The notes under the pieces: model-generated
The model's input: the letters and a program-made list of their open reading frames with translations, nothing else
What the model was told of the DNA's origin: nothing
Database searches by the model: none
Program-made: the position numbers and the translations under genes
IMG/VR virus record: IMGVR_UViG_3300032006_001851
Length of the DNA stretch: 64,000 nucleotides
From: an uncultured virus (IMG/VR IMGVR_UViG_3300032006_001851)
Taxonomy: Duplodnaviria; Heunggongvirae; Uroviricota; Caudoviricetes
Reading direction: 5' to 3' (one strand)
Part shown: piece by piece, positions 6,989 through 55,248 of the stretch
Position numbering within the stretch: position 1 is the first letter of the stretch
Layout of the letters: the number at the start of each line of letters is the position of its first letter

Positions 6989-6997
6989 GTAGATAAT

Positions 6998-8029: not shown

Positions 8030-8034
8030 TTTTT

Positions 8035-8046
8035 TGGTGTATAATA
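8035..8046 (+). promoter_or_regulatory. Candidate phage promoter element TGGTGTATAATA
   Basis: Intergenic, contains TATAAT, upstream of the tail tube gene. An identical 12-mer is at 46148. Confidence 0.6.
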
Positions 8047-8093
8047 TCATGGCAACTCGCATTCTTCGCACAATGTAAAGGAGAGCTTATAAA

Positions 8094-9119
8094 ATGGCCA
8101 ATAATAGAATTTTCTGGGCATGTCAGGCAGTGCTTCAAGCCACACACGGCGAAGCCGACATGACCAACGCAACAGCGCTTTACGGCGTTCAGAGTGTAGG
8201 CATTACAACAACTTTCAACCTCGAACAAGCTTTCGAATTGGGTCAGATCGGCCTATACGAAAACATCGAAGAAGTACCCGATGTTGAAGTTACTATCGAA
8301 AAGGTTTTGGACGGCAGACCGTTAATCTACACGTCCATGTGCCCAACTGCTGGCAGTATCGTAGCCAAGGCCAACGACAGACGAGATGTTTATCTCGCTA
8401 TCTATTCTGACACGGCTGAAAAGGCCGGTGCGGCAGAACCCGGCTCTATTGTTTACTGCTCAGGCATGTATGTAAGTTCACTTACCTACACGCTTCCTGT
8501 AGACGGAAACTCAACTGAGTCCGTCACGATGGTTGGTAACGACAAGAGATGGTACGGTAACGCCTCTGATTTCACAACCGTTCTTCCTGCGCATCTTGGT
8601 GCTAAAGACCTTAGCTTCGGAGCAATTGGTAGTGAGCACTCTCCCGGTTCTGACGGGGTTCAGAGAAGAGAAAATGTCAACCTTGCAGCTTCTGTTCTCC
8701 CGGCGGATATTCCCGGCGTCGAAGACACTAGCACGGGCAACGGTTGGAATAGTTCTGCAAACTCACCCCACGTTCACCTTAACAGTATTACTGTTAGTGC
8801 TGACCTTGGTCGTGACGCGATTAATGAACTAGGTAGAAAGACTCCGTACCACAGATACGTTACTTTCCCGCTGGAAGTTACATCTGAGTTCGAAGTCACT
8901 ACAGTTTCCGGTGACCTAGTTGATGCCAGAAGTACTGCCGACAACTTGACAGATCGACAGATCTACATCAAGATGACCGATGGCACTATCTTGGATCTTG
9001 CAAGTAAAAATAAGTTAAACAGTGTTACCTATGCTGGTGGTAGTACCGGTGGTGAAAACGCAACTGTAACCTACAGTTACTCAACGTTCAACGCCCTTAC
9101 TGTTACTTCGCCTTCGTAA
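8094..9119 (+). CDS. Major tail tube protein
   Basis: Strong SD (aaggag) and its own promoter candidate. Beta-rich, with tube-type QS......F..E...ELG motifs. Upstream of the chaperone-region and tape measure genes. Confidence 0.75.
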   Translation: MANNRIFWACQAVLQATHGEADMTNATALYGVQSVGITTTFNLEQAFELGQIGLYENIEEVPDVEVTIEKVLDGRPLIYTSMCPTAGSIVAKANDRRDVYLAIYSDTAEKAGAAEPGSIVYCSGMYVSSLTYTLPVDGNSTESVTMVGNDKRWYGNASDFTTVLPAHLGAKDLSFGAIGSEHSPGSDGVQRRENVNLAASVLPADIPGVEDTSTGNGWNSSANSPHVHLNSITVSADLGRDAINELGRKTPYHRYVTFPLEVTSEFEVTTVSGDLVDARSTADNLTDRQIYIKMTDGTILDLASKNKLNSVTYAGGSTGGENATVTYSYSTFNALTVTSPS

Positions 9120-9126
9120 TCGACTA

Positions 9127-9212
9127 TTGAGGTCTAGGCGTTTACTAGACCGCTCAAAACCAGTATATGATGCGATAGCCATTTTTGGGATAGGCGAGTG
9201 GGTATACTGGTT
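9127..9212 (+). other. Two adjacent inverted repeats after the tail tube stop
   Basis: TTGAGGTCTAG/CTAGACCGCTCAA (9127-9157) and AACCAGTATAT/GTATACTGGTT (9158-9212). Confidence 0.5.
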
Positions 9213-9284
9213 AAAATACATTAGGATCTTAGGAGTGGACAGTTATGATAGCAAACACAAAATTCCCGTTGGTAAAGTTTCGAT

Positions 9285-10343
9285 ATGGAACCTTATGAGC
9301 GGGAATTTTATATATCAAGGATATGTGCAGGATATCTTAAGTATAAGATAGATTCCGAACTGTCTATTTACATACATCCATTAACCTTGGACCAACAATA
9401 CGACGCAAACGAAGTTTTTCTTGAGGCTTATAACGAAGCCTTAATGAATGACATGATGACCGAAGAAGAATGCATTGACATGTTGACAAGCTATGGATTG
9501 TGGGACGATGAGAAAGAAGAGAGTTTAGAAAAGCTAGTTAAGGATATAGAGGAGTTAAAAGTTCAGTTGTATAATTCTTACTTTAAAAGAGAACTAAAAA
9601 TAACTGTTCGAAAAGGAATCAATAGAGCTAAAAATAAACTGTCCTCCCTCATAGAGGAAAAAAGTTCGTATGATTTCTTAACATGTAGAGGATATGCAAT
9701 TTTCTGTAGATATTTTTGGATGCTGGAAAACGCCACCAAATATCCCGATGGAACGCCTTATGACTGGAAGCATGTGGACTTGGCTAAAATGTTAGCGTTC
9801 TATCACCAACAACAAATAAGCGACGAAGATTTACGAGAGATTTCCAAGACAGAGCCTTGGAGAAGCACTTGGTCTAGCGCCAAGAAGAATGGTTCTATTT
9901 TTCATAAAAGCGGAGTAGAGTTAACGCAAGATCAAAAAAGTTTACTTGCTTGGTCTAGTATGTATGACAATATTTTTGAGTCCCCCGAATGTCCACCAGA
10001 TGATGTAATTCAAGACGACGACGCTTTAGATGGTTGGTTAATCGTACAAAGAAGAAAACGAGAAGAGGATCAGAAAAGATCTGCCGCTGAAAATATTATA
10101 GGTAATTCAAAAATAAGCAACGCCGACGAAGTATTTATAATGACCGATCCCAGTAGCGCAAAAGATGTTAATCAGTTAAATGATCCGATTGCTAGAGCAA
10201 ATCAAAAATCAAGATTGAAGGAACTTAGATCTAGAGAAAAGGCTGGAAAAAGCATGACGAAACATTCGAAGCTAAAAGATGTAAAACAAAGAGTACAAAT
10301 GGAAGCCAACTCAAAATTTTCTAAAAACATGAAGGGAAGATAG
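9285..10343 (+). CDS. Putative tail assembly chaperone (long form)
   Basis: Between tube and tape measure genes, helical, N-terminal half resembles 10715..11677. Confidence 0.5.
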   Translation: MEPYEREFYISRICAGYLKYKIDSELSIYIHPLTLDQQYDANEVFLEAYNEALMNDMMTEEECIDMLTSYGLWDDEKEESLEKLVKDIEELKVQLYNSYFKRELKITVRKGINRAKNKLSSLIEEKSSYDFLTCRGYAIFCRYFWMLENATKYPDGTPYDWKHVDLAKMLAFYHQQQISDEDLREISKTEPWRSTWSSAKKNGSIFHKSGVELTQDQKSLLAWSSMYDNIFESPECPPDDVIQDDDALDGWLIVQRRKREEDQKRSAAENIIGNSKISNADEVFIMTDPSSAKDVNQLNDPIARANQKSRLKELRSREKAGKSMTKHSKLKDVKQRVQMEANSKFSKNMKGR

Positions 10344-10344
10344 A

Positions 10345-10722
10345 ATGGACAAGGGATACGAAGATTTAATCAGGGCGTCTACAAAATATAAGGTTGATAA
10401 AGATTCTAAATACAAAGAAGACTCTAAAGATAGACTGTTAAAAATTTCCAAAAAGAAAATACAAACAACAATGATAGGAGCACTAAGCACTATCGAAAAG
10501 CATTTTGGATTTTTATGGGGATATGAAGAATCAGACAGTCTAACAGATGAGCAAAAGCATATGCGGGATATTTTTGAAGAGGCCCGCTCAGAAATATTGG
10601 ACAAAGGAAATAGCCAAATGCGAAATTTGGAGGCGGAATTTGCCCAGTATGATGTTAAATGGCTAAGATATAGCATGACACTTCCAGTCAAAACAGTAGA
10701 TAAGGAGGAAAACGATGGCTAA
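10345..10722 (+). CDS. Hypothetical helical protein in the chaperone region
   Basis: 125-aa ORF abutting both neighbours. Confidence 0.6.
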   Translation: MDKGYEDLIRASTKYKVDKDSKYKEDSKDRLLKISKKKIQTTMIGALSTIEKHFGFLWGYEESDSLTDEQKHMRDIFEEARSEILDKGNSQMRNLEAEFAQYDVKWLRYSMTLPVKTVDKEENDG

Positions 10723-11677
10723 GCAGAAGGGTAGAATCACAGTAGAGTCTGTAGATAAGAATGGAAACGAAAAAATTGTTTCCGTTGTTGATCCTACAGC
10801 TAAGGATAGAAATGAAGCACAATTACATTATCTAAAAGCTTTCAGAAAAGCTCTAGAAAATGGTGCTATTCTTAGACAGAAGCTCGAAGACTATCTAAGA
10901 GATCAACAGATTTGGGATGAGGAAAAAGAAACCAGATATTCTGAAATTGTCAAAGAGATTGCTCAGGGTGAACGAAGATTGAGCGCTGGCGGAATTAAAC
11001 TCGCTGAAGCTAAAGATATAGCTCTGTCCATGAGAGATGCCAGAAATGAATTCAGAGTTCTAGTGGCCGAAAGAACTTCAATGGACGCCAACACAGCCGA
11101 AGCCCAAGCCGATAACGCCAGCTTCAACTATCTAGTTTACTCCTGCACTGTAGATCCAGACAGCGGGAAAAAGGTTTTTGACAGCTTGGATGACTACGAA
11201 GAAAATGCAGATGAGCCGTTTGCGGCCAGCGCTGCCGCCACCTTGGCAGACAAGCTATACCAACTGGACCCAGATTACGAGAAGGGGTTGCCAGAAAATA
11301 AGTTTCTCGTTCAGTATAAGTTTGCTGACGAAAAACTGCGCCTTCTAAATAAGGATGGCAAGCTTGTAGATGAAGAAGGCAGACTGTTAAATGATGATGG
11401 TCGTTTCATTAATGATGATGGCCAACTCATCGACATTGATGGCAACCTTGTTGACGAAGAAGGCGAATTTGTTTCGGATTTTGTGCCATTTCTTGATGAC
11501 GATGGAAAGCCCGTCGTTCTTGAAGAAGATAAAAAGACAGAAACAAAAAAGAGAACATCAAGGAAAAAGAAGGTTCAAGAAGAACCACCCGAAGATGAAG
11601 TCTTGAATGAGACAGAAGAAGTTGAAGAAGAGGTCGAAGCCACTAGCGAGGTTGAGACCGCTGAAGTAGATAGCTAG
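10715..11677 (+). CDS. Putative tail assembly chaperone with 7-aa (D/N)xxG repeats and acidic tail
   Basis: aaggagg SD, immediately upstream of the tape measure gene, contains LLNKDGKLVDEEGRLLNDDGRFINDDGQLIDIDGNLVDEEGEFV. Confidence 0.55.
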   Translation: MAKQKGRITVESVDKNGNEKIVSVVDPTAKDRNEAQLHYLKAFRKALENGAILRQKLEDYLRDQQIWDEEKETRYSEIVKEIAQGERRLSAGGIKLAEAKDIALSMRDARNEFRVLVAERTSMDANTAEAQADNASFNYLVYSCTVDPDSGKKVFDSLDDYEENADEPFAASAAATLADKLYQLDPDYEKGLPENKFLVQYKFADEKLRLLNKDGKLVDEEGRLLNDDGRFINDDGQLIDIDGNLVDEEGEFVSDFVPFLDDDGKPVVLEEDKKTETKKRTSRKKKVQEEPPEDEVLNETEEVEEEVEATSEVETAEVDS

Positions 11678-11754: not shown

Positions 11755-14700
11755 ATGGCTGGCAAATTTGTATTGACAGCAGAAATCCGAATGCGAGCAC
11801 CTAAAAACCTTAAAAAGGTTGCTCAGCAAATCAGGAGTAATCTCGGCAGCAAGACTACCGAGGTTAAGGTTCAGGTAAAAGGGGCAAAGAAAACCGCAGC
11901 CGATTTGGCCAGAGTGGAGAAGGCTGTAGAAAAGGCCGGTTCTAAAGCGTCTGCGGCAAGGGGAAAGTTTGACTTGCTTGGCAGCGCAATTGGTCAGGCT
12001 GTGGTTCATGTCGCTAGATATGACGTAGCTAGAAGAATTGTAACTGCATTTGGTCAGGCTATTGGTAGGGCTACTAAAGATGCCATAGCCTTCGAAAGAG
12101 AAATAATTAAAGTGTCTCAGGTTACTGGGCAAAGTGTACAAAGTCTTAAATTTTTAAATACTGAAATTACCAGACTGGCTACGAACTTCGGTGTTTCTTC
12201 TTCATCTCTTGTTAAGACAACTAGAATTCTTGCTCAGGCCGGTCTCACCGCTAAACAAACTAAGTCGGCCCTAGAAGCCCTAGCTAAAACTACACTAGCT
12301 CCAACCTTTGATGATATTACCAGCACTACGGAAACTAGTATTGCGGTTATGTCTCAGTTTGGCTTAGAGGCTAGTAAGCTAGAAAATGTTCTCGGTAAAA
12401 TTAACAGGGTTGCTGGTAGTTTTGCTGTAGAAGCCGGTGATTTGGGCACGGCTATTAAACGTGCTGGTGGCGTATTTAAAAGCGCTGGCGGTTCTGTAGA
12501 AGAACTCATAGCTCTGTTTACGTCTGTTCGATCAACTACGCGAGAGACTGCTGAAACTATTGCCACGGGCTTTAGAACCATTTTTACAAGATTGCAACGT
12601 CCAACCACCCTGAAATTCCTTAAACGGTTTGGGGTTGAGCTTCAGAATCTTGAAGGGCAATTCGTTGGACCTTTTGAGGCGGTTAGAAGACTTAACGCAG
12701 TTCTTAAAGATTTAGACCCAAGAGACATAAGATACTCCCAGATTACTGAACAGTTGGGCGGCTTCAGGCAGGTGTCTAAAGTTATTCCCTTAATCCAACA
12801 GTTCGAGAAAGCTCAGAAAGCTTATAACGTTGCCCTAGACGGAGGTGCCTCTCTATCTAAAGATGCGCAAACCGCCCAGCAAGGACTGGCCGTTCAATTC
12901 ACAAAGGTTAGAGAAGAGTTCACCGCTTTGGTCAGGGCGATATCAAATGATAGTGTCTTCAGGGGAATGATTGAGCTTGCCACAAATATGGCGAAGGCGT
13001 TTATACGGGTTGCAGATTCGATTAAGCCACTCATTCCCCTATTGACAGCCTTTGGAACTTTTGCGCTTGCTAGGGGCGTGGGAAGATTTGCTTTGGGTAG
13101 AGGGGGTGGTGGTGGAAGAGGTGCCGGTGGGAGAGGCGGCGCTATGCCCGGCATATTTGGGGTAAACAAGGGCGGGAAGATCAAGGGGTATGCGCGAGGA
13201 GGATTGGTTCCCGGCAGAGGCAACGCAGATACAGTACCGGCTATGTTGCAACCGGGTGAATTTGTTATCAGGAAGTCTGCTGTTCAGTCACACGGCGTCA
13301 GTAATTTAGCGGGCATAAATAGATATAATAAAGGCACAAAAAATCGAGGCGTGCCTAAAAGAGGAAAGAAAAAACCCGGAACTATCCAAAGCCAACAAAG
13401 ACTGGGAATGTTGGTTCAAAAAGTTGGAAAAGCCGACCCCCCGGATTATACTAAGGTTAGCGCCTCTCTTCGAAGCGCCAAACAAAGAGGGCCGGTTAAA
13501 CGCCTTCTTGCGCAAGATGAAACCGCCAGAGTGCAGGCTCCTGTGGATGTTTCTATTTTTACGAAGGGAGGCAATTCGTTTGAAAATTCGGAAAAAGCAA
13601 TCAGAAAGAGAGCAAAAAACGCACAAAGAAACTTAAGCAGAAGCGCCGGAAGAAGCATTGGTAATGCCTACAAGGCTAAGCTGGGCCTAAGTCTTGGACA
13701 ATTGTTTGAAGACTATGTTACCACCACCGCAGGAGTCAAAAAACCCGGCAATAAAAATTTTGATCTGATCAAGAAGGAGGGTCAACTCAAAGACTTTGTC
13801 AACGAGCGGATCCGGCCATATACCGATATCAAACTATCCTCTAACTCGACAAATGCTAGAGATGTTATTCGTAAAGGCATTAATCAAAAACGCTTTGATA
13901 GGTCAATAAACAGGCGCGCACAACGGCTTGAGGCAACAAACAAGAAAAACACTGGTGGAGTTATTACTACCGGGTTTGCTGCTGGTGGCGCTGTAGATAC
14001 TGTTCCAGCATTATTAACCCCCGGCGAATTTGTTATAAACAAAGAGTCTTCCCAGAAAATTGGGTACTCTAAACTAAACGCGATGAACAAGTTTTCCAGA
14101 GGCGGGCCGGTACAGAAGCGTGCTAACGGTGGTCCGATACTGAAGTTCGCGGAGGGAACTCCCGGCAGAGGTGTTCCCGGTGGAGCTATGGGGCAGGCTG
14201 CTATTCGAAGAAACGAGGAGGCGGCGGCGAGGAAGGCTAATAAGGGGCTTGATGATGCGGGAAAAGCTGGAAAGAAGGCAAGCCGCGATCTGCTGGGGAT
14301 GGCGTTTGTTGTATCTGCCCTGACGGAAAGTCTTGCGTCAGGAGAGGGCGTCTTTAACGATTTCATGGGAGGAGTTAGTCAGGGTATCCTGACATTCGTT
14401 CTTCTTAATGAAGTTATCAGCGCTTCGGCATTAGCTAGGGGTTTTGATAACTTGAGGGGTGGGACTGAAGGCGCTGGAAAAGGTCTTGGAACTCTTGCCG
14501 GTGGTTTGATTGCTGGGGCTTTTGCCGTTAATGCCTTTGCAGATAAATTGGTAGCGGCAGATATCAAGGCTGGTGGTGCGGCTAGACAGGGTGCGGCAGG
14601 CAAGGCTGCTGGCTTCGGTGTTGCTGCCGGGGCGATTGGAGGCGCTGGAGTTGGACTGGGTGCAGCGGCTGGTGTAGCGGCAGCGACTGGCACCGCTTTA

Positions 14701-17700
14701 ACCTCAACGGGTATTGGAGCTTTGATAGGAATTCCCCTACTCATAGGGGCACTTGCTTTTGGAGCCTCGGAATATAGCGCAGCCACGAAGGCTATACAAA
14801 AAGCGGACTTTGCAGATTCGGTTTCAAAACTAGATGACACCTTCCAGAGATTTTCTAAGGGTAGAATTTCTACCGGGCTTGCTCTCGCACAAGCTGGAAC
14901 TGGATCAAGGGATCTAAGACGGGTTATAGAAAGAGATCCTTCACAAAGGGGAGAATTTGCAGGAGAGATCAAAAAGATAACCGGCAAAACTAAAGAGTTG
15001 GTTTTAGAGTTTGCCAAGACTTCCAAAACAACGCAAGAGTTTGACAATGCAACGAGAGGTGCTATAAGAGAAGCTACTCTCCTTGGTCAAACATCTTTCA
15101 GGCGGCTAAGAGAAGAAGCCCATAAGCAAATTGAAGCTCAGATTAAAGCTAGAGAAGCTCAAGCGAAACTGAGTCAGCAAATAGAAGATACATTTAAAAC
15201 ATTAAATCTACAAAGATCTCTAGCTGCTGGGTTCAGGGAAATGACGGCCAGAGTTCAAGAAGCCTCAAGAGGTCTTGAAGTATTTGCAACTTTAGCAACT
15301 GGTAGATTGAGCATTGGAAAGCCTCGCGCTATTGGAAGACTTCTACAAAAGCCAGAAGAGATTGTAGACTTTGACAAATTTAAAAGAGAGATTGAAGCTG
15401 TTGATGACAAATTAAAAGAAATGCAGGTTCCCCTAGAAGATATAACTAAAATTTCGGGACCAGCTAAAAAGGCCGGTGAAGTATTAACTAAGCTTCCGGC
15501 TGTACTTCTAGGGTCTGCAAAAGCCTCACCGACAGCAAAGAAGGGCGAAGGTCTTATTGATCAGGTTCTTAAGCAATTGGGATTGACCGGGGCGGGTGCA
15601 TCCGATGCAGATCAGGAGATAGGTAAAGCTCTAGCGATTGCCCTAGACAATGTTGGTGACGATTTAGCTTCAAAAATTAAAGCAGATCCAGAGGGTATTA
15701 ATGCTAAGATTGCTCAGGCTTTAACTCCATTTCTGAAAACTCACGCGGAAGGTGCAAAGTTTATTGACGCTTCCAATAAACAACTAGCCGCTGGTTTACA
15801 GCAAAGAGGTCAGCTTGAGCTTAAAATTGCAAGAGAAGAATCGGAGTTGCATAAGTCGAGATTGCAAGGGCTTAAGCTTATATCAGAAGCTAGAGGAATA
15901 GACGTAGACCTAGTAAAGATTAAAGAAGCAGAAGTAGCTGCAAGAAAGAGTTTGCTTGGTACAGACTTCCGTGGCGGGAGCGATGTTGATTCCTTAGCTA
16001 AAAAGCTAAAAGAATTACAGGCTGAAATTGTTAATCAGGAAAGGGCTTACGATGAGGGCACAATCAGCTTTAGAGAATTACAGGATGAAACTGCTCGTCT
16101 TAGATCTCAGTTCTCGCGGGTAAATCTGGTTCTAAAAGATTACGCTAATATACAAAAGCGTATCGCAGAAGATCAAAAGAGGCTCAGTCAGCTTCGTTCA
16201 CAGAGAGAAAAGAAAGCTGCAACTCTAATAGATGCGACCTTCGGCGGCTTGGAGGATATACTTAAGCTCAGGGCTAATTTCGAAAGGGCTGAAGGACTGG
16301 GTAGGGGCGGTCAGCCTATCGTTGCGGGTGATCCAAGAAATAAAGACATCTTGCAGCTTATGAGGCAATTTGGAGATGTTCCTCTGGAAGCCTTTGGTAA
16401 AATTACCAAACCGGAATTACAAGCTCAGGGATTGGACGCTAATGCGATAGCGAAGGCTTTGAAAGAAGGCAGGGCTAGAACCGGTGACGAATTAGCCGCA
16501 TTTAAAACATTCGAATTTTTCAGAACAAAGTTCCCCAAGTTGTTTGAAGGTGCTGGTGGAAGAGCAGCGGGTAGGCAAATACTGGGTGGTACTAGCGACC
16601 CGGAAGAAAGGCTTATCCAGAGTATTGAGAAGCAAATTCTCGAAGGAGAGAGAGCTAGGCAGGCTATGATAGATTCCCTTAAGCAAACAAATAGGGATCT
16701 GGGAGACACCCTTGCTAGACAAAACAAAGAGTTCCTCAGAGGATTGAGACAGGTATTTATTCAGTCTAGAGTAGATGAAGCCAATATAGAAAAGGCGACT
16801 GCTGATGCCGAGAAGAAAAATGCCCGTGCTAATGTCAAGGCATTGACGACCACCATACCACAGACCATTGAGAAACTTTTAGAAACGACTACTGAAAGGG
16901 ACACAGCTAGAGGGTTCACTGCACCAAGTGTTGCCCTAGACCTCTTAACAAGGGCACTAGATAAAGACGTATTAACGACTTTGCAGAATAGTCTTGAACC
17001 CTTAAAAGAGCTTGATAAACTACGTGGCGAAAGACAGAGAGGGCAGAGTTTACGGGATCTTCTTGCAACGCCGTCGCTGAACCGCCTTTCCACGCCACCG
17101 TCAGTGACTGCCGATTCTGGCGTCATTAATCCGCTGGGAAATCTCCGTGCGGCTGGTTTTCAGGAGATTGAAAAAAGGCTTGACGGAATAAGACGTGGGA
17201 CTGCTGGGTTTGGGGGCTTGGGGGCTGGGGGTGACGCTAAGGCGAACCGTCAAGCCGGGAAGAATTTGGCAGCAAACCTGCAAGAGTTAAGAGCAGTAGC
17301 TAAATCTCTTGGATTTTTGGATGAGCTTATTGCTGCGGATGCAGGCATAGGTTCCGACAGTCAGGTCACTCAACAAAAATCCTTGCTTCAGTTCTTAAAT
17401 AAAAATACGTTTGGAACCGGTGACAAGATTCAGCAAGCGCTTATTGAAGGCATTGAACGTGCTGGAATAGACCCTAGCACAATAGAGGGGCTTACTGAGC
17501 TAGGCAAGGTTTTGGGTAAGGGTGGACAGGTACGTGGGAGAACTGATGACGGTGATCCCATAAGGGTGTTTCCTCTTCAGAAATTAAATGAAGTTCTTGC
17601 TAATGTACGTGAAGAACTTAGAAGACGTATTGTGATACAGCGGGAAGAAGAGGCATCACGGACATCGGAACTTTTGGAAGGAGATCTTGGAAAACTATTC

Positions 17701-20700
17701 CAAAAAATTGGTATTGATCCGTCAGTAGGTACTGCGCTACTTGCTCGTTCAACAGAAGAAATTCAAAAAGCTCTACAGAATTTAGACACATTCGATTTGA
17801 ATGAAGCGCGAGACGAATTTATACGTACATCGACAGATGCAAAGAAAGCTGCGGATGCATTAGAAATTTTTAGGAGACAGCTTCGTAATATAAGATTAGA
17901 GGCAATGAGTCCTGCAAGACGGATTCTTACTGAGGGAGAAGAGAGAAGAAAGCGGGCTGGTCGGCTCACCGAAGGGCAGAGAAGAAGAAGAGGGGAGCCG
18001 GGTGACAGTGGAGCAGGAATGCCGCAAGGCGGGTTCGATCAATTCTCTGCTACCAGAGGCGGCGGTGATCGCCTAAGAACCGATGACACCACCGCTCATG
18101 CCCTATTGGAGAGTATTAACAGGGGTGTAAACAGACCGAGCCGTGGTCTCAGTACTATTTTTAGTGCTACGGGTGGCGTTGTTACCAAATATGCTAAGAT
18201 GGGAGCGGGCATTCCAAATTGGAAACCCAGAGGTACTGATACGGTTCCTGCTCAAACCCCTGATGGTCAGCCATACGGGTTAACTCCCGGTGAAAGGGTA
18301 ATGAGCGTTAAGGCTACAAATGCATTTGGCCCACAGTTGGCGAGCATGGAAAGGTCTGCTCAAACAGGTATTGGTCTTGCTACCGGTGGAATTATCTATG
18401 CACAGGGTGGAGCCAAGGCGGGCAAGGCGGGTGTTGGTCCGACAGCACCAGCACCGGCGGTGGGAAAAAATGCTCCAGATTGGATGACACATACAAGGGT
18501 TTCGGATTTGTCCCCGGAGCTACAAAAACAGTACGAGGCCATGGGTTATGGACCTGATGCTAAACTATGGTTTGGTTCAAATCAAGAATTAAGAGGCCCC
18601 ATTCTTAGTCAGGGAGGCTTCACCAGCCCAGACAAATTAAAAGCAAGATACCAACGCTCTAAAAGAGATCAGGAGTTTTCTGGATCTAGGCAATTTCAGG
18701 CGATTGCTGCCTTAATGGCATATGCCCCACAAAGATCCGTGAAGGGAGATTATAAGTTTTTTGGAGCGGCAGCTTTTCAGGAAATGATGGAGCGGCTAGC
18801 TCCCGGTCAGGCTCCTCCTCCGGGCCTTCTTACTTTCTTTAAAGCTTTCGGGTTGGGGGCCGGTGGTAAGGGTGGCCAACCAAATCGCGGTAACCAAGAT
18901 GACTTTGCGAGAGCAAGAGCTAGGATTTTCGGTGACCCCCCAGACCCCCTTGATAAACCTCCAACTTCGGGTCTTATGGGAAGATTTTATCGAAATACCG
19001 GAATAGATGCAAGAAGAGCCATGAAAAAGTTTGGACTCTTTGACGATCAGGGAATTTCCGACGATGGTAGAAGACTACTTCTATTTTCAAAAAGCACTCC
19101 CATAACAAGGTCTTCTTCTGGAACGCCGAAGGCGCAGGTTCATGGATTTATGGGGATTGGTTCAGAGGGATTCTTTGGCACTGGCGTTAACTATAATATA
19201 TTCTACCATGAAATGATGCACGCCCTAAGTCGCAAAGCGGCTACGTCAACGATGTATGCGTCAAGTCGTGCAGATTATGCAGGATATGAAGCCAGACTAC
19301 AAGGAATCTTTTCAGGTAAGGATGATGTCAGCAATGAATTGTTACAACAAGAACTAGCAAAGTATGGCATAACCAAGGATTCTATTGGAACCGGAAAAGG
19401 GTTGCCGATTGCACTTATGGAAGCTATTAGGCTTTCCGCTCAAAATCCAGAGGCACAATCTGGTCTTCCTTCGATAAGAAAGTACTTACCGTGGTTGTTT
19501 AACATGACCACTGCGAGAAGTTATGATGCAAATCAGGATGGATTCTTGGATTACTCGGAATTTTCTAATGCTATAGAAGCCACAATGTTTGCCCAAAGGG
19601 CATTATCTGGTCAGTTGAAGGGGGTGCGGGGAGCAGTAGCTTCAGGTGTAATTGGAGATCTCGCAGGTCCGACGAAGTTGGCAACTGTGGCCATGGATGC
19701 TGCTGGTGGGATTGGAAGATCGCAGGCTACAGGAACAGCAGAAGAACTGAAGAGGGCGGGGATCGAACAAGGACCGGAATATAGACTAGTTGAATATATT
19801 CAAGAGATTAATAAGTCATTTGGTGGAGCTTCGGGTACTGACTTCTTAGAAAGAATATATAACTATAGTTCTTACGGGAAGGGATTCATAGACCCGAGAG
19901 GCTTCGCGGAGAATCATCCGAGAGGCAAGGGATTCCGCAAGCAGTATCTGACGAACAGAGACGAAACGTTTGTCAGAACCATGATGTTGGCGTCTGGAGC
20001 ACAACCGGTTGATCGATCAAGGCGAGGTAGACTTAGGAGAGGGCTGAATCTTGATGACTTTATTGCCAATCTAGGGACTGATAAAAACAGTGCCGCTCTC
20101 AAGGCTCATTTTAATCAAAAGGTGAAATATGAAGGAAACACAATGACTAGAGCGGATAAGTTGAAGAGACTTATTCGGAAAGTCAGAGATAATCAAAAGG
20201 AAATTTCAACAGAGCCAGTTAGAACAAACCAAAGGCAGTTTGGCGGCGTAATTTATGCTCAAACAGGACAACAAATAGACCCGGCGGTTCCAAGTGGAAT
20301 AGATGATGAAACTGGGCGACCCTATCATATTGGCCCGCGACCTCCCAATGATGGTAAAGCGTGGGAGCGGCACTTACTTCCAAACGGCACGCCCTATTGG
20401 CTACTGGTTCCGGGTCAACGCACCGGGCCGTCAGAGCAGCCAGCACCCACGGAGATTGAACCCGTATCGCCAGCCCCAGCCATGCCAACCACGCCTGAGC
20501 CGACTACACCGAGATCTGAACAGCCCGACTACGACCCCACTCCTCCCACTCCCACCCCACGTCCAAGACCACGTAGACGCCCACGCCCACGCCCAAGACC
20601 ACGTCCAAGACCGGCAGCACAAGTGCCTCGCCCTCGCAGACGACGCCGAGGTCGCGCGCCTAATAGAAGAGGGGGAGTATACCCACACTTGAACCCGTTT

Positions 20701-23700
20701 GGTGGGCGGGGATATTTCTTTAACATGCTTAATAAGGGTGGAGTAGTATATGGGCAGACAGGAATAAGCGTTGCGGAAAAACGTAGACAGTCTGAATCCA
20801 GAAGGAAAGCTCATCGTAATATGGTGGTTGATGGTTTCAGTATGGGTGGTTTATTTTCTCGCCTAAAGGGAAATGCCGCCAATCCACTTGGTGATCCGAT
20901 TGAACACGATAGACTCTTGAGAGAACAGGATAAAGCCAAGAAGAGAAACGTCAATATGGACAAGCCTCCATCAATCTGGCCCATTGTAGCCGAAGGTGGG
21001 AAGACGCTTCCACTTGACCAAGAAAAAGCCGAGGCATGGCGAAAAGCTATGGGCCTGCCTAAAAATTACTGGTCCTTAAGCGGCAAACAAAAAGATGAAG
21101 CTAGACATCACGCCTATCTAAAACACGTGGCGCTTCGCCGTCTAACTCAAGAGCCTGTCCCGATAATCCCCCCACCCTTCCCTCTTGATTTGCCACCTGC
21201 AACTTTGCCTAAACAATCGCCTATCCCCAAACGTGGCTGGCGTCCTCGTGATCCTCATAAGCCTCCAAAAGCTCCAGCACTTCCTCCATCTCAGCCATCA
21301 GCCCCCGGTCTAACCCCCGTGCCAGCAGCACCAGCACCGGGGACAAAACCCGATCATCATGCAGCCCCGCGCCGCCGCCATCCGATTGTAGGCCCCAATG
21401 GGGCTAGCCCAGCCCGCCGAGATCCGATCTCGACTGATATTGAAAGCGGTGGATTGATGTTCCGCAAGGCCAGACCCGGCGAAAGAAAAATGGGGCCAAA
21501 CACAAGAGCAAGAGAGCAAAGAGAGAAGAATATAATAGACCAGATCCGTAAAAAATTGTACCAACAAGGTCTATCTAATAAAGATATTATCGAAAAGTTT
21601 GGACCGGTGCAGGCAGCTAAACTTGGTATTGGTGGAAGACCTCCAGCCTCCAAGCAAGAACTTTTAACAAGGGCACTTCTTAAAAGAAAATTCGGCTTAA
21701 CAGAAGCTCAAGTAGATGAAGCTATGTACTTTGGAATTACGGATGAAAAGGGCAACGTAACGTTCAAGGGTAGCAGGAGATCTCTTGGTCCAACTAAAGC
21801 CAAGCCGAAACCGGGATTGACTATAAAAAAGAAGAAGCGTTCTGTGCGGGATGTCCTAAAAGAACAAAGAGAGGGCCGCAGGAAGAATCGTGCAACTGGT
21901 GGGATGATTGGGCTACAGCGCGGTGGAATACCATCAAGACCACCCTATCAGGAACCCGGAAAAGATGTTCCATGGTTAACCAATGATGCTTGGGGGTTAC
22001 CTCCGCTTTCAATACAAGCAAAGTTTCCGGGTAGATCATGGCCATGGCGTAGCCCCGATCCCTTCGGGCTTCCTCCGCTTTCAGAACAAATGTTTGGCCT
22101 TGGCCAACAACCTTATGGGTTTCATCCCGGCCCAGAACCTTCCTCTTTCTCGCCTTGGCCGCGTGCAACTGGTGGGATGATTGGGTTGCAGCGTGGTGGA
22201 ATACCATCAAGACCACTCTACCCGGAACCCGGAAAAGATGTTCCATGGCTAACCAATGATGCTTGGGGTTTGCCTCCGCTTTCAATACAGGCAAAGTTTC
22301 CGGGTAGATCATGGCCGTGGCGTAGCCCTGATCTCGATCCCTTCGGGCTTCCTCCGCTTTCAGAACAAATATTTGGTCAACAACCTTATGGGTTTCATCC
22401 CGGCCCAGAACGTCGTGCAACTGGTGGTGTGATATATGCAGGTATAGGGTCTGTTATAGGGAAGGGGTTAAAGTGGTTGAGGGGACTGTTTGGGTTTGGT
22501 GCAAAGAAGGCGGTAAAAAAGACGGCAAAAGGAACGGGCCTATCCTTGACAAAGGGGGTGTCGAAGGTACTATCTAAAGCCGTAGAACCCCCTGTAAAGA
22601 ATATCCCCCTGCCACCACCGGGGCGACCTGATTGGGTTTCAGCGGCAAGCGGAGAACCCGGCACTGTTGCTTATCTAAAACAAGCATATGAAAATATATG
22701 GTTGCAGTCCGACGATCCATTTGGAATGATGGAACAATCGACGGTCACCATTGCCGGAAAAGAGATGGATACTTTTCATGCCATGATGGATGCTATGGTC
22801 TCACACGACTTTGTGAAGTCACGGGGGGGCTGGGGGGGAACTGGGTCGGGTGCCTATAAGGGTTCAGCTAGGGATATTGAAATTGAACTTCTTGACCACC
22901 TGTCAGGTATGGGGTTCGCTGAAAAGGATGTATTAGACTTCTACAATATGATGCAAAAGGGTGGTAGGGGTCGTGTCCTTGGTTCATCGTTAGAGCAGCA
23001 TAGAATTCTTAAAGCTACAATGAAAACCAAAAGGTCAAGACCTGTTCCGCGATCATTAAAAGGAATGGGTGATTATGAGGAAGAAGCTCTTGCTGAGTTT
23101 CTTAAGAGATATGGGCTTCATAGTTTTGATGCTCCAAAAGAGATGCAGAACCTTGGACCTGTTTGGCCCGAGAAAGGGATTGGCGGTGATAAAGCAACCG
23201 AACTGAAGGCGATAAGAGATCGAGTGAAGGCTCGTCAAAAAGATCCTCAATTGCCCCCCTTGCAATACATGCCCGGTTTTCGTATAAATCTAAAGACGGG
23301 TGAACCCTACAAGGTTAGGGTTACACCGTTAGCCCAAGAATTAATTGACGCAAGATATAGAAAAACAGGACTCCTTCCCAATGATCCCGTAGAACCCAGC
23401 ATCTGGGAAGATCTTCCCCCTAAGTTATCTTTCCATGACGGCGGTCTTGTGCCACGACAGCGTGGGGGAGATGTACCGGCCTACCTGCAAAGTGGCGAGT
23501 TTGTTATGCAGAAGAAGGCCGTTGATAATATCGGTCTTAGCAATCTAGAGAGAATGAATAGTGGCGGGGTTGTTTATGCTAAGAACGGTAGGCGTCTACC
23601 GCGCTTGCATGCGAAAGGCCAGCTACCGCCGGAGCAGAGTAAAGAGCGGGCAGCGGCAATTAAAGCCCACAGTGATCCCCATCGAGCTTTCAAGCAAGGA

Positions 23701-26460
23701 GAGCAGGATCCGCGTGGGGTAAGGGGTCAAGGGTTTTGGGGCGGACTCGTCTTTCCGGCATTTGAACTTGCTAGTGAATCTAGTCTCGATGTTGTTGGGG
23801 GAATTAAGGAGAAGTTGGGATGGCCAAAGGGAGAGCAGGAAAGATTAAGAGAAGATCCAGCATTGTGGGAGGAATTGCTTTTTGATTTTACCCATTTAAT
23901 TGGCGCTGGAGTTGTGACTGTCCCGTTTAAGTTGGGTAAAGCTGGTGTATCCGCATTTAAGGCGTCTCCAAAAGTGATTAAAGCTTTTGTTGCCTTTATG
24001 AAGAATGCCCCAATCAGTAAGACCAAGGAAGGTCTTAAAGAGGCTGCTTCTTATCTCGCCGCTCAGAGAAAAACCTATAAGGCCGGGAAAAAGGCGATGG
24101 GGTGGCAGGGCAGGCCGTTTAGGCATAAGGGTGCGGGTCGGGGTTCTCGCACTGTGCAAGGGCCTCCCGTGCCGGGTGTCGACGGCCCACGGGCAACGGG
24201 AGTTTTTGGAGGATTTTATGACGCGATGGCGATTGGTAGGAGAGTGTTGGCCGAAGGGGCCGATAAGATGGGACCGGCGGGGATGGCTCATGGAGCAAAG
24301 GTGATGACGCTCCAAGGAGCAAAGGCGTGGGACGATGCGGCACAGGAGACGCTGAAGAGGGCAGAAGTCTGGTCCAAGCAGTTGTCTGGTGGGCAGCGGA
24401 ATAGGGGAAATAAAGTCTTCGATGAAATGATCCAAAGTTTTATTGGGGAAGCTAAGCAAAAGGGAGATCTTGATATATTAAAAACCCTAGATGAGATGTT
24501 CATGACATCCGACCCTGCTCAGGCTGCGTCTGTGCAAAATCTACACCGTATGGCGATTCGTGGAATAGAACAGGGGCGGGGCGCGGAGTACTATGGGGAT
24601 ATAGAGACGGCGTTCTGGAATGATTGGGCATTTGATCTTGCAAATTCAATGGGAGATTTTGATAAGCGTCTTGGTATTAGGGCTGAGAATATTCTCAATG
24701 ATATTGTAATAGACCCCCAGATGCAGAGAGAGAAAAGTTATGGTTGGGCATCGCGTAACACCGACTATCTGAGGAGAACGGGAGAATTCTCTGGGCGTGG
24801 TTCATTGGGTCATATACAAGCCGATCTTCCAGAGCTTATGGATACTACGAGAAAAATGAGGACAGTAGGATTGCATCGTCAAAACATGACCGTTCCGGGG
24901 GGGCGCGGAAGGCGGGCCATGGAGGCAGAAGACATTATGTTTCGGGGTATGATACCCGGAGGACTTAGTAGCTCCACCCCAAAGGATTTTGAGGAAGCAA
25001 GAGCAATGCTGGTCAGCCTCAGAAGAACCGCGATGGAAGAAACACTTCACTCGATTGATAGAAGTGGTCGAATTGGTCAAATCTTAGGTCGAGCTAGAGA
25101 AGGACACCCACTTGGGGTGGGACGAGAATCGATCAGTGCGACATTCGATAAAGACATGGGAGCACTTTCGGAGTTGACCAAGCCCGGCACGGCGGGGAAG
25201 GTTCCAGAGGGGCCGTTTGCAGAGATAGCAGCGTTGGTAGATGATGAAGCGGCGTTAAAAATCTCTCAATGGGAAATGAGACTGCATAAGGCTACCGGAT
25301 TCGCAAGGAATTTCGGCACCGACACGATCAGCCACGCAGAATATATTGCAGGTAGCGCGAGAGAGAAATTTGCAAAGTTGATATCAGCCTATGAAAGCTT
25401 GATTGTAGGCACAGGGGCTGATACCGTAGCTGCGGATAAACTGATAGAAGAGATTCTTGGAAAAGGCAAAGCTCAAAAGTTTAGAAATCTTTGGCTTGGC
25501 ACAGGGAGCGGCATTGGAGATATCGGTAAGCCGGGCTTGAAAGACTTCCTGCAAAGAGTCGATAAAGCTGGCCGGTTCAAGCCGGGAGTCATGGCGAATT
25601 TAGATGAACTACCGGCTCCGCTTTTGGAATCACGATTCGAAGATATCTCAAGAATTAATTTCGGCGCTGACCCCGATGATCTGAGTCCAAGTATTAACTA
25701 TGATAGTCCGAACTTAGACTGGGCGTTTCGAAAAAATGAAACCGTAGACTTGTTGGGTACTCCTTTTTATGGGTCCGGCTCATCACGCAGCCAGTACTTC
25801 GACCCGCAGTTTCATAGAGGCCAGTTGACTTTAGAGCAGCAGAAACTGTTTGGGGAATTGCCGGGTGTGCATTGGAGACTCCGTGGAGTAGAGAAGAAAA
25901 CGGCCCTAACCGGTTTCCATCAAGGTGGTCTTGTTACAGGGCTTGCTGGTGGGGGCGATGTGATCGCTAGGCTACAGCAGAATGAATACGTTCTTAGGTC
26001 GAATGCTGCCTCTAGACTCACTAGAGATTTTGGTCCCGATTTCCTTAATAACATGAATAACTATCACAGCGGAGGACATGTTGGCTCGCAACCATCAAGC
26101 ACGTCCATAAGTGGTGGTGGTGGTGGTGAAATTTCCGTCAACATGACTGACTTTACAAACGCCTTGAATGCCACACTACAGACATTCACTCAGGGCATGC
26201 AGCAAATAGTTGTGCCGCTTGCTGAAGCAGGAAATAACTTGTCGAAGGTTGATGGTTCTGTTATTACAATGAATAGCAAGCAGGATGTTAATGTTAGTAT
26301 TCCAAACCACTCAAAGGGAATGGGTGACGCAATGGAATCGCTGGCTAATGAGGCAGTTAGGAGTGGGCTTAATCAGGTGCTTACTAAGCAGGGAGCAGCC
26401 CCTAGACCCGCCAACAAATCTAGCGTGACACCGATAGGTAAGAGACAAGGACTGACGTAA
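11755..26460 (+). CDS. Giant tape measure protein (TP901/PhageMin_Tail-like N-terminus) with multiple cargo modules
   Basis: N-terminal Ala-rich helical TMP domain (...AVEAGDLGTAIKRAGG...EELIALFT...AETIATGFRTIFTRL). Gly/Ala hydrophobic segments near 14300-14770, a long coiled region, and repeated GG...D.VPA.L..GEFV motifs. Confidence 0.9.
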   Translation: MAGKFVLTAEIRMRAPKNLKKVAQQIRSNLGSKTTEVKVQVKGAKKTAADLARVEKAVEKAGSKASAARGKFDLLGSAIGQAVVHVARYDVARRIVTAFGQAIGRATKDAIAFEREIIKVSQVTGQSVQSLKFLNTEITRLATNFGVSSSSLVKTTRILAQAGLTAKQTKSALEALAKTTLAPTFDDITSTTETSIAVMSQFGLEASKLENVLGKINRVAGSFAVEAGDLGTAIKRAGGVFKSAGGSVEELIALFTSVRSTTRETAETIATGFRTIFTRLQRPTTLKFLKRFGVELQNLEGQFVGPFEAVRRLNAVLKDLDPRDIRYSQITEQLGGFRQVSKVIPLIQQFEKAQKAYNVALDGGASLSKDAQTAQQGLAVQFTKVREEFTALVRAISNDSVFRGMIELATNMAKAFIRVADSIKPLIPLLTAFGTFALARGVGRFALGRGGGGGRGAGGRGGAMPGIFGVNKGGKIKGYARGGLVPGRGNADTVPAMLQPGEFVIRKSAVQSHGVSNLAGINRYNKGTKNRGVPKRGKKKPGTIQSQQRLGMLVQKVGKADPPDYTKVSASLRSAKQRGPVKRLLAQDETARVQAPVDVSIFTKGGNSFENSEKAIRKRAKNAQRNLSRSAGRSIGNAYKAKLGLSLGQLFEDYVTTTAGVKKPGNKNFDLIKKEGQLKDFVNERIRPYTDIKLSSNSTNARDVIRKGINQKRFDRSINRRAQRLEATNKKNTGGVITTGFAAGGAVDTVPALLTPGEFVINKESSQKIGYSKLNAMNKFSRGGPVQKRANGGPILKFAEGTPGRGVPGGAMGQAAIRRNEEAAARKANKGLDDAGKAGKKASRDLLGMAFVVSALTESLASGEGVFNDFMGGVSQGILTFVLLNEVISASALARGFDNLRGGTEGAGKGLGTLAGGLIAGAFAVNAFADKLVAADIKAGGAARQGAAGKAAGFGVAAGAIGGAGVGLGAAAGVAAATGTALTSTGIGALIGIPLLIGALAFGASEYSAATKAIQKADFADSVSKLDDTFQRFSKGRISTGLALAQAGTGSRDLRRVIERDPSQRGEFAGEIKKITGKTKELVLEFAKTSKTTQEFDNATRGAIREATLLGQTSFRRLREEAHKQIEAQIKAREAQAKLSQQIEDTFKTLNLQRSLAAGFREMTARVQEASRGLEVFATLATGRLSIGKPRAIGRLLQKPEEIVDFDKFKREIEAVDDKLKEMQVPLEDITKISGPAKKAGEVLTKLPAVLLGSAKASPTAKKGEGLIDQVLKQLGLTGAGASDADQEIGKALAIALDNVGDDLASKIKADPEGINAKIAQALTPFLKTHAEGAKFIDASNKQLAAGLQQRGQLELKIAREESELHKSRLQGLKLISEARGIDVDLVKIKEAEVAARKSLLGTDFRGGSDVDSLAKKLKELQAEIVNQERAYDEGTISFRELQDETARLRSQFSRVNLVLKDYANIQKRIAEDQKRLSQLRSQREKKAATLIDATFGGLEDILKLRANFERAEGLGRGGQPIVAGDPRNKDILQLMRQFGDVPLEAFGKITKPELQAQGLDANAIAKALKEGRARTGDELAAFKTFEFFRTKFPKLFEGAGGRAAGRQILGGTSDPEERLIQSIEKQILEGERARQAMIDSLKQTNRDLGDTLARQNKEFLRGLRQVFIQSRVDEANIEKATADAEKKNARANVKALTTTIPQTIEKLLETTTERDTARGFTAPSVALDLLTRALDKDVLTTLQNSLEPLKELDKLRGERQRGQSLRDLLATPSLNRLSTPPSVTADSGVINPLGNLRAAGFQEIEKRLDGIRRGTAGFGGLGAGGDAKANRQAGKNLAANLQELRAVAKSLGFLDELIAADAGIGSDSQVTQQKSLLQFLNKNTFGTGDKIQQALIEGIERAGIDPSTIEGLTELGKVLGKGGQVRGRTDDGDPIRVFPLQKLNEVLANVREELRRRIVIQREEEASRTSELLEGDLGKLFQKIGIDPSVGTALLARSTEEIQKALQNLDTFDLNEARDEFIRTSTDAKKAADALEIFRRQLRNIRLEAMSPARRILTEGEERRKRAGRLTEGQRRRRGEPGDSGAGMPQGGFDQFSATRGGGDRLRTDDTTAHALLESINRGVNRPSRGLSTIFSATGGVVTKYAKMGAGIPNWKPRGTDTVPAQTPDGQPYGLTPGERVMSVKATNAFGPQLASMERSAQTGIGLATGGIIYAQGGAKAGKAGVGPTAPAPAVGKNAPDWMTHTRVSDLSPELQKQYEAMGYGPDAKLWFGSNQELRGPILSQGGFTSPDKLKARYQRSKRDQEFSGSRQFQAIAALMAYAPQRSVKGDYKFFGAAAFQEMMERLAPGQAPPPGLLTFFKAFGLGAGGKGGQPNRGNQDDFARARARIFGDPPDPLDKPPTSGLMGRFYRNTGIDARRAMKKFGLFDDQGISDDGRRLLLFSKSTPITRSSSGTPKAQVHGFMGIGSEGFFGTGVNYNIFYHEMMHALSRKAATSTMYASSRADYAGYEARLQGIFSGKDDVSNELLQQELAKYGITKDSIGTGKGLPIALMEAIRLSAQNPEAQSGLPSIRKYLPWLFNMTTARSYDANQDGFLDYSEFSNAIEATMFAQRALSGQLKGVRGAVASGVIGDLAGPTKLATVAMDAAGGIGRSQATGTAEELKRAGIEQGPEYRLVEYIQEINKSFGGASGTDFLERIYNYSSYGKGFIDPRGFAENHPRGKGFRKQYLTNRDETFVRTMMLASGAQPVDRSRRGRLRRGLNLDDFIANLGTDKNSAALKAHFNQKVKYEGNTMTRADKLKRLIRKVRDNQKEISTEPVRTNQRQFGGVIYAQTGQQIDPAVPSGIDDETGRPYHIGPRPPNDGKAWERHLLPNGTPYWLLVPGQRTGPSEQPAPTEIEPVSPAPAMPTTPEPTTPRSEQPDYDPTPPTPTPRPRPRRRPRPRPRPRPRPAAQVPRPRRRRRGRAPNRRGGVYPHLNPFGGRGYFFNMLNKGGVVYGQTGISVAEKRRQSESRRKAHRNMVVDGFSMGGLFSRLKGNAANPLGDPIEHDRLLREQDKAKKRNVNMDKPPSIWPIVAEGGKTLPLDQEKAEAWRKAMGLPKNYWSLSGKQKDEARHHAYLKHVALRRLTQEPVPIIPPPFPLDLPPATLPKQSPIPKRGWRPRDPHKPPKAPALPPSQPSAPGLTPVPAAPAPGTKPDHHAAPRRRHPIVGPNGASPARRDPISTDIESGGLMFRKARPGERKMGPNTRAREQREKNIIDQIRKKLYQQGLSNKDIIEKFGPVQAAKLGIGGRPPASKQELLTRALLKRKFGLTEAQVDEAMYFGITDEKGNVTFKGSRRSLGPTKAKPKPGLTIKKKKRSVRDVLKEQREGRRKNRATGGMIGLQRGGIPSRPPYQEPGKDVPWLTNDAWGLPPLSIQAKFPGRSWPWRSPDPFGLPPLSEQMFGLGQQPYGFHPGPEPSSFSPWPRATGGMIGLQRGGIPSRPLYPEPGKDVPWLTNDAWGLPPLSIQAKFPGRSWPWRSPDLDPFGLPPLSEQIFGQQPYGFHPGPERRATGGVIYAGIGSVIGKGLKWLRGLFGFGAKKAVKKTAKGTGLSLTKGVSKVLSKAVEPPVKNIPLPPPGRPDWVSAASGEPGTVAYLKQAYENIWLQSDDPFGMMEQSTVTIAGKEMDTFHAMMDAMVSHDFVKSRGGWGGTGSGAYKGSARDIEIELLDHLSGMGFAEKDVLDFYNMMQKGGRGRVLGSSLEQHRILKATMKTKRSRPVPRSLKGMGDYEEEALAEFLKRYGLHSFDAPKEMQNLGPVWPEKGIGGDKATELKAIRDRVKARQKDPQLPPLQYMPGFRINLKTGEPYKVRVTPLAQELIDARYRKTGLLPNDPVEPSIWEDLPPKLSFHDGGLVPRQRGGDVPAYLQSGEFVMQKKAVDNIGLSNLERMNSGGVVYAKNGRRLPRLHAKGQLPPEQSKERAAAIKAHSDPHRAFKQGEQDPRGVRGQGFWGGLVFPAFELASESSLDVVGGIKEKLGWPKGEQERLREDPALWEELLFDFTHLIGAGVVTVPFKLGKAGVSAFKASPKVIKAFVAFMKNAPISKTKEGLKEAASYLAAQRKTYKAGKKAMGWQGRPFRHKGAGRGSRTVQGPPVPGVDGPRATGVFGGFYDAMAIGRRVLAEGADKMGPAGMAHGAKVMTLQGAKAWDDAAQETLKRAEVWSKQLSGGQRNRGNKVFDEMIQSFIGEAKQKGDLDILKTLDEMFMTSDPAQAASVQNLHRMAIRGIEQGRGAEYYGDIETAFWNDWAFDLANSMGDFDKRLGIRAENILNDIVIDPQMQREKSYGWASRNTDYLRRTGEFSGRGSLGHIQADLPELMDTTRKMRTVGLHRQNMTVPGGRGRRAMEAEDIMFRGMIPGGLSSSTPKDFEEARAMLVSLRRTAMEETLHSIDRSGRIGQILGRAREGHPLGVGRESISATFDKDMGALSELTKPGTAGKVPEGPFAEIAALVDDEAALKISQWEMRLHKATGFARNFGTDTISHAEYIAGSAREKFAKLISAYESLIVGTGADTVAADKLIEEILGKGKAQKFRNLWLGTGSGIGDIGKPGLKDFLQRVDKAGRFKPGVMANLDELPAPLLESRFEDISRINFGADPDDLSPSINYDSPNLDWAFRKNETVDLLGTPFYGSGSSRSQYFDPQFHRGQLTLEQQKLFGELPGVHWRLRGVEKKTALTGFHQGGLVTGLAGGGDVIARLQQNEYVLRSNAASRLTRDFGPDFLNNMNNYHSGGHVGSQPSSTSISGGGGGEISVNMTDFTNALNATLQTFTQGMQQIVVPLAEAGNNLSKVDGSVITMNSKQDVNVSIPNHSKGMGDAMESLANEAVRSGLNQVLTKQGAAPRPANKSSVTPIGKRQGLT
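20557..20655 (+). repeat. In-frame low-complexity (Pro-Arg)n tract
   Basis: Encodes PRPRPRRRPRPRPRPRPRPAAQVPRPRRRRRGR. Confidence 0.85.
21889..22427 (+). repeat. In-frame tandem duplication (273-bp and 252-bp units) bounded by CGTGCAACTGGTGG
   Basis: The 14-mer occurs at 21889, 22162 and 22414, and the two units align closely. Confidence 0.95.
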
Positions 26461-49500: not shown

Positions 49501-49502
49501 GA

Positions 49503-54589: not shown

Positions 54590-54590
54590 A

Positions 54591-55238: not shown

Positions 55239-55248
55239 GTCCACTCCT

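Follow-up and report, generated by a model that had tools for sequence, protein, structure and literature searches.

RESULTS

A giant tape measure gene and its surroundings

The window analyzed here is a stretch of 64,000 nucleotides from an uncultured virus (IMG/VR IMGVR_UViG_3300032006_001851). Its ORF at 11755-26460 matches PHROGs tape measure protein (TMP) families and, at aa 137-323, the TMP N-terminal domain PF10145 (102.8 bits against a cut-off of 33.2; E 3e-29). Judged by these matches, the ORF is the 4901-aa TMP of a marine bacterial virus (Table 1). The neighboring genes had no family match, and their order and conservation fit a tube/chaperone-TMP-tip layout. The gene at 8094-9119 probably encodes the tail tube protein, given its position and size. 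The probable tail tube protein of a relative (G001:C90:36381-37454) gave a two-piece match in one frame with a short insertion.

Other genes in the window include a tail fiber with a C-terminal Peptidase_S74 self-cleaving chaperone (3277-5571) and a 2689-aa protein (37586-45655) that matches Peptidase_M10 at aa 451-509 (E 2.7e-9). The latter has neither a strict HExxH nor a GG motif and is a candidate tip protein or processing protease. The minus strand at 47343-63939 carries a sugar-nucleotide/surface-glycan gene cluster (two epimerases, a DegT aminotransferase, a formyltransferase, a methyltransferase, WavE, a cytidylyltransferase, and a HAD plus nucleotidyltransferase) on this phage contig.

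The first 20 kb of locus L100, from a 177-kb contig, are identical to the window sequence. In four of four sequencing runs, all of which may be the source of the window, long contigs covered the ORF with no differing letters. Contig breaks in these runs fell at or near a 273-nt duplication, with one more at a short repeat (run X13), and one contig omitted a 273-nt unit, either as a variant or through assembly collapse. Five genome-bin matches carried five unlike host labels and are probably misbinned phage contigs. No sheath family was found in the three genome bins examined, which is weak evidence, and no cultured relative of the window phage was found. A planctomycete host is conceivable from one SHD1 match.

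Table 1. Features of the TMP gene and its upstream region
Feature	Coordinates	Strand	Basis
Conserved upstream tail genes	5838-11677	+	Conservation
Giant TMP, 4901 aa, 530 kDa	11755-26460	+	ORF, PF10145, PHROGs TMP families
Conserved N-terminal TMP region; presumed head-proximal end	11755-13161	+	Matches 49/50 other giant TMPs
Domain copy 1; predicted cuts before 13165 and 13192	13162-13374	+	HMM
Slot-1 cargo, 191 aa, PD-(D/E)xK-like motif; replaced in L101, L102	13375-13947	+	Alignment
Domain copy 2	13948-14142	+	HMM
Conserved core: hydrophobic segments, then long charged helical region	14143-18165	+	
Domain copy 3, with insertion	18166-18423	+	HMM
Cargo with HExxH (19207-19221) and EF-hand-like loop (19519-19578)	18424-20232	+	
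Lone motif; also ends the same HExxH module in L102	20236-20259	+	
Two proline-rich, basic segments, lone motif at 20731 between them	20260-21888	+	
Tandem duplication of 273-nt motif-bounded unit	21889-22413	+	
Lone motif, then cargo opening with a cationic amphipathic stretch (by eye)	22417-23406	+	
Domain copy 4	23407-23601	+	HMM
762-aa cargo; part common to P0156 at 72%	23602-25887	+	
Domain copy 5; position of the lambda/JBD30 single copy	25888-26112	+	HMM
C-terminal 115 aa	26113-26460	+	

A repeated domain of about 65 residues bounded by GG motifs

A sequence-only reading of this DNA had listed a recurring GG motif at 16 coordinates and a longer block occurring five times. All 16 motifs are present within 3 nt of those coordinates, and an HMM finds five copies of the block (aa 470-540, 732-796, 2138-2223, 3885-3949, and 4712-4786), of which a strict regular expression caught three. 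The 16 sites are not separate motifs: 11 are the two ends of the five domain copies, and five stand alone. The domain consensus opens with (F/Y/K/R/L)-(A/S/N)-x-G-G-x-(V/I), continues to D-T-V-P-A-x-L-T-P-G-E-F-V, and closes with L-x-x-x-N followed by (Y/F)-A-x-G-G-x-V. Among 933 copies, the Asp (92%), Pro (93%), Gly (99%), Glu (95%), Asn (94%), and closing GG (93/90%) are strongly conserved.

The simple motif GG[VILM] is only weakly above chance in the ORF (26 matches against a mean of 12.7 and a maximum of 24 in 300 shuffles), and GG[VILM][VI] is clearly above it (14 against a mean of 1.3 and a maximum of 5). Lone motifs in giant TMPs numbered 232 against 13 expected. All four Gly codons are used at the motifs; the constraint therefore acts on the protein. 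The motif is restricted to the TMP for all eight matches among the 93 ORFs of a 141-kb relative and for 15 of 16 in the window. The earlier statement that segments between motifs are mostly unrelated fails for the two 273-nt units bounded by 21889, 22162, and 22414, which are 93% identical because these lone sites bound a recent tandem duplication. By eye, the units look like a decayed domain copy lacking the Glu.

The domain profile matched 31,829 protein clusters (50% identity), and the 150 best-scoring of these ranged from 2122 to 7872 aa, each matched in 4-11 stretches. The profile also matches lambda gpH (733-785), JBD30, Douge, which has two copies, and, weakly, Chi; further matches are to T4-like cyanophage proteins and to the TMPs of many cultured actinophages. 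No Pfam or NCBIfam family, including the Pfam LPD families, matched the ~65-aa sequence. In 193 giant TMPs, copy number grew with protein length (rho 0.75), and the last copy ended a median of 136 aa before the C-terminus, the position that the single copy occupies in lambda and JBD30. AlphaFold predicted two short helices only, with a pLDDT of 55 that rose to 67 with a deeper alignment. Foldseek against the PDB and VIA gave no match, and BFVD gave weak TMP rows only.

The domain was also seen, mostly once, in hypothetical proteins of 500-1000 aa (L048, L065, L079, L088, L093, and Prochlorococcus phage P-TIM68), some of them from T4-like cyanophages; these are possibly the unrecognized tape measures of their phages. 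The giant TMPs are nearly cysteine-free, with 40 Cys in 739,753 residues (P0001-P0150 and loci).

Modules are exchanged at the domain copies and lone motifs

Turnover was analyzed in 193 of 201 giant proteins, eight duplicates having been dropped, from a set picked for many copies (best 150 by score). Over all pairs, a break in homology was seen at 71-99% of informative domain junctions, at 55-90% of lone motifs, and at 7-39% of control points. In 65 disjoint pairs, breaks fell at 66 of 85 internal copies versus 55 of 161 masked random controls (odds ratio 6.7, p 6e-11), at 47 of 58 first copies, at 27 of 33 last copies, and at 17 of 30 lone motifs (odds ratio 2.5, p 0.024 versus the same controls). 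Uninformative cases were excluded from these counts (internal 105, first 7, last 19, lone 54, and controls 135). Boundary-dominated cases made up 133 of 159 informative lone motifs and 81 of 790 controls.

Individual comparisons gave the same picture. The L101 protein, from a close relative, is 89% identical to the window protein before slot 1 and 86% identical after it, with a different slot-1 module between copies 1 and 2. At the DNA level, 28-30 of every 30 positions are identical up to 13284, identity is random by 13375, and it is high again from 13963, so that it drops just past the core of copy 1 and recovers within copy 2. The distant P0152 and P0050 carry the slot-1 module of the window, and L102 carries the HExxH module together with its terminal lone motif. 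At the repeated domain and the lone end motifs, which partition the chain, modules have been gained and lost, moved, and exchanged. The suggestion that the motifs are points of recombination and module turnover was supported by this direct test among related giant TMPs.

Break enrichment would be expected at any conserved linker, and turnover alone fits cut sites and linkers alike. According to one alternative, only the last copy is cut, as in lambda and T5, while the inner copies and lone motifs serve as recombination linkers and flexible spacers and the cargo is active while tethered or is ruler filler. The crossover inside domain DNA fits such linkers, as do the motif DNA bounding the 273-nt duplication, the proline-rich low-complexity sequence in several window segments, and the fact that 820 of the 858 copies have their nearest neighbor in a different gene, usually in the same position class (659). 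We nevertheless regard this alternative as unlikely: inner copies retain the full conserved core, the 8-residue lone motifs are too short and too diverged at synonymous sites for a role in DNA alone, and catalytic-type residues are conserved within cargo families.

Cargo modules are sorted around the conserved core

The 1268 segments of the giant TMPs fell into 453 families, of which 352 were singletons. Upstream families carried PD-(D/E)xK-like, ADP-ribosyltransferase (ART), P-loop plus HIGH, HAD, and HExxH motifs; the enzyme family names follow the motifs. Segments upstream and downstream of the core were counted in 163 of the 193 TMPs. The upstream/downstream counts were 71/3 for the nuclease motif, 16/0 for ART, 18/0 for HIGH, 48/2 for HAD, 10/2 for SNase, 0/14 for EF-hands, 1/19 for hydrophobic segments, and 24/24 for HExxH, and they are not independent events because the enzyme patterns were defined once the consensuses, most of them upstream, had been viewed and because family members share ancestry. 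Shuffles gave 0-0.6 HExxH segments. At the motif level, nuclease-, ART-, NAD-, and phosphatase-like modules thus lie before the core, and EF-hands and hydrophobic segments lie after it. This sorting would fit cytoplasmic targets for upstream cargo and envelope targets for distal cargo.

Pfam matches were obtained for 13 of 91 modules, most of them weak. The ART module was confirmed (PF03496, E 1.8e-7), and the HIGH enzyme had a weak library match. Distal cargos elsewhere included a DnaJ domain (E 2.5e-8) and an SHD1 domain (E 6.9e-10) (L003:11663-14986 and L038:5228-6742).

In the window, the slot-1 cargo resembles a PD-(D/E)xK nuclease by its motifs. An alignment of 24 slot-1 sequences has a helix Glu, an Asp, and (D/E)-x-K in order, a conservation that is partly by construction because members were chosen by the nuclease pattern (three of 27 were dropped as false). 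Its best profile match was BsaWI (E 0.87), PADLOC gave nothing relevant, and the ESM Atlas and the family libraries searched gave no match. The HExxH zincin motif at aa 2485 had no family match; L102 keeps both it and the EF-hand-like loop at 46% identity. The 762-aa cargo gave ESM Atlas leads below 0.9 only, including one of 0.75 to LPD22. No relative of three distal cargos was found in viral-contig scans, and the segments at 20260-21888 had no homolog among 192 giant TMPs. Neither the TMP nor its modules matched LPD or other named polyvalent domains in Pfam. The proposed injected payload is supported at the motif level for giant TMPs, few of whose modules have Pfam or PHROGs matches, and does not extend to the window modules, none of which had a significant family or fold. 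The clearest effector slot lies ahead of the core (13375-13947) and not in the distal part.

The mapped cleavage site in T5 and a predicted site in lambda

The GG motifs had also been read as processing points. The T5 TMP, pb2, is cut after R1127 (PMC10038345), and residue 1128 starts the sole [ASN]-x-G-G-x-[VILM] in its 1219 aa. The mapped T5 cut thus lies two residues before GG, which supports the reading indirectly; for the window phage, processing is a prediction. R-A-x-G-G, with a Glu downstream, is conserved in 10 of 10 T5-family sequences examined, distant Vibrio phages included. A match of S-RIM14 to T5 was spurious and was left out. Most window sites fit the pattern (A/S/N)-x-G-G-x-hydrophobic, as does T5 at residue 1128. 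The motif of giant TMPs opens with A, S, or N and is preceded mostly by F, K, R, L, or Y, and specificity would therefore lie after the cut. The T5 block and the domain had an hhalign probability of 0.1-0.2; the A2 HMM of the domain did not match pb2, and the T5 profile gave weak, motif-driven matches only. With no statistical profile link, what T5 and the domain share comes down to the short motif and a Glu at similar spacing. P318 carries two domain copies plus a final T5-like block in one chain.

The region of lambda gpH homologous to the domain (E 1.4e-6 and 5e-6) lies near the C-terminus, where gpH is cut after tail assembly into products of ~78 and ~14 kDa; a 2025 paper states that the site and catalyst are unknown (PMC12617516). 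By analogy with T5, a cut at F733/A734 is predicted. It would give 79.8/12.5 kDa, and a cut at residue 710 would give 77.7/14.6 kDa, closer to the reported sizes. The Asp and Asn, conserved at 92-94% in giant TMPs, are both missing from lambda gpH. Asn self-cleavage was rejected as a universal mechanism for lack of this Asn in lambda, and an analogy to double-glycine bacteriocin leaders was rejected on the position of the T5 cut, which is before GG and not after it.

Two other functions have been considered for the domain. It could act as a hook, engaging the baseplate once this has opened and setting the pace of ejection, with cleavage behind it; the JBD30 paper predicts this for residues 1022-1066 (PMC11445458, section 16). 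Those residues are this domain, and the two predicted helices would suit a hook. In T5, however, the 42-43 baseplate-bound residues precede the cut and the A-x-G-G block follows it, the JBD30 cut at 1066 is itself a prediction only, and lone motifs are left unexplained, which makes the hook quite improbable. Still less probable, in our judgment, is a small zinc peptidase acting on peptidoglycan, after the metallopeptidase motif with muralytic activity that was placed behind the T5 cut (PMC10038345). H-x-x-E does occur at the conserved Glu in both T5 pb2 (1144-1147; L124) and lambda gpH (752-755; L103), but the His is replaced in four of 10 T5-family sequences, 81% of giant-TMP copies have Thr, and chains contain up to 10-11 copies, some flanking cytoplasmic-type enzymes. 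The T5 zinc carboxypeptidase motif may instead be a misreading of this block.

DISCUSSION

We think it fairly likely that the window TMP is a polyprotein that is cleaved at x/(A,S,N)-x-G-G and ejected piece by piece in order, the tail ruler doubling as a magazine. The chain would be threaded, extended, through a very long non-contractile tail with its C-terminus at the tip, and during tail maturation it would be cut just before each (A/S/N)-x-G-G, as in T5 pb2. The first candidate for the cutting agent would be the domain itself, with its conserved Glu. TMP C-termini are reported to sit at the tail tip; distal pieces would therefore exit first, then the channel former, and the slot-1 pieces at the end. 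Upon infection, the anchor would leave tip-first, followed by envelope-acting distal cargo. The C-terminal 115 aa are the probable anchor in the baseplate (gpHC/pb2C equivalent), from position alone. The core would come next and form a membrane channel, a role that is likely by analogy with lambda gpH* and T5 pb2* (hydrophobic segments at aa 911-1007, 14485-14775). Slot-1 enzymes (nucleases, ADP-ribosyltransferases, NAD enzymes, and phosphatases) would pass through this channel last, immediately before the DNA. Crossover between related phages would take place in the conserved DNA of copies that hold the same position.

A broader, two-part proposal is offered as tentative, and we would sooner expect it to fail in some part than to hold entire. 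The domain would be an unrecognized Glu-dependent self-processing module, recognizing A-x-G-G past the cut both in its own copy and in lone motifs, and would account for the maturation of TMPs in phages ranging from lambda and T5 to mycobacteriophages. In addition, a large group of uncultured long-tailed phages would have multiplied the domain and turned the tail lumen into an ordered injection magazine, with a last-out slot from which polymorphic cytoplasmic enzymes (nucleases, ADP-ribosyltransferases, and NAD enzymes) would be delivered before the genome. For lambda, the cut is predicted to the residue (F733/A734), and E755 becomes the candidate catalytic Glu. The analysis also names a widespread domain (31,829 clusters) that has no Pfam family, and it offers a rule for dividing TMPs into modules. 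If the reading is true, a reservoir of unassigned phage-delivered enzymes resides in tails rather than heads.

About 2700 aa had been placed beyond the helical ruler. A length of 2,764 aa does lie distal to the core; its exclusion from the ruler is not supported: in TM4, loss of a 114-aa enzyme motif shortened the tail by ~20 nm (PMC1796659). Given the length relations of TM4, Douge (1699-aa TMP, 269.6-nm tube), and JBD30 (1158 aa, 180 nm), the distal ~2,760 aa of cargo probably count as ruler, and the tail of the window phage would be about 710-785 nm long.

TMP cleavage, TMP enzymes, and polyvalent proteins are known separately. A shared cut motif, a multiplied domain, and position-sorted, swappable cargo in tail rulers appear to be new: our literature search, which covered mainly open-access articles, found none of these, and no text describing the motif or domain as a TMP processing signal. 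Like the window TMP, T5 pb2 has hydrophobic segments, a long helical body, and A-x-G-G-x-hydrophobic near its C-terminus, there at the mapped cut that yields pb2* and pb2C. It differs in having one site in 1219 aa, compared with five copies and five lone motifs in 4901 aa, and the block behind its cut belongs to another subtype, whose profile does not match the domain significantly. Lambda gpH has the same domain with both end motifs, but as a single copy with no cargo.

The actinophage TMPs of TM4, Douge, P318, and Hortense have 1-4 domain copies adjoining enzyme modules; the wall-enzyme modules of TM4, P318 (CHAP), and Hortense (SLT) adjoin copies or sit between them. Unlike in giant TMPs, their known cargo is wall-degrading, and the four examined have no nuclease/ART/NAD slot. 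Thermus phage P74-26 gp95 is a TMP of similar size (5006 aa) with an annotated metallopeptidase domain and, unlike the window protein, no domain copy; a giant TMP therefore does not need the domain. Polyvalent proteins combine many unrelated conflict-type domains, HExxH peptidases and ARTs among them, in one injected chain for which processing has been proposed (PMC5512222), a paper in which "tape measure" occurs 0 times. By motif and, for ART, by Pfam, giant TMPs may likewise hold several unrelated effector domains; the window cargos have no significant family. The two differ in the proposed cutting agent, which in polyvalent proteins is the metallopeptidase domains (PMC5512222) and in the window protein would be the repeated domain itself.
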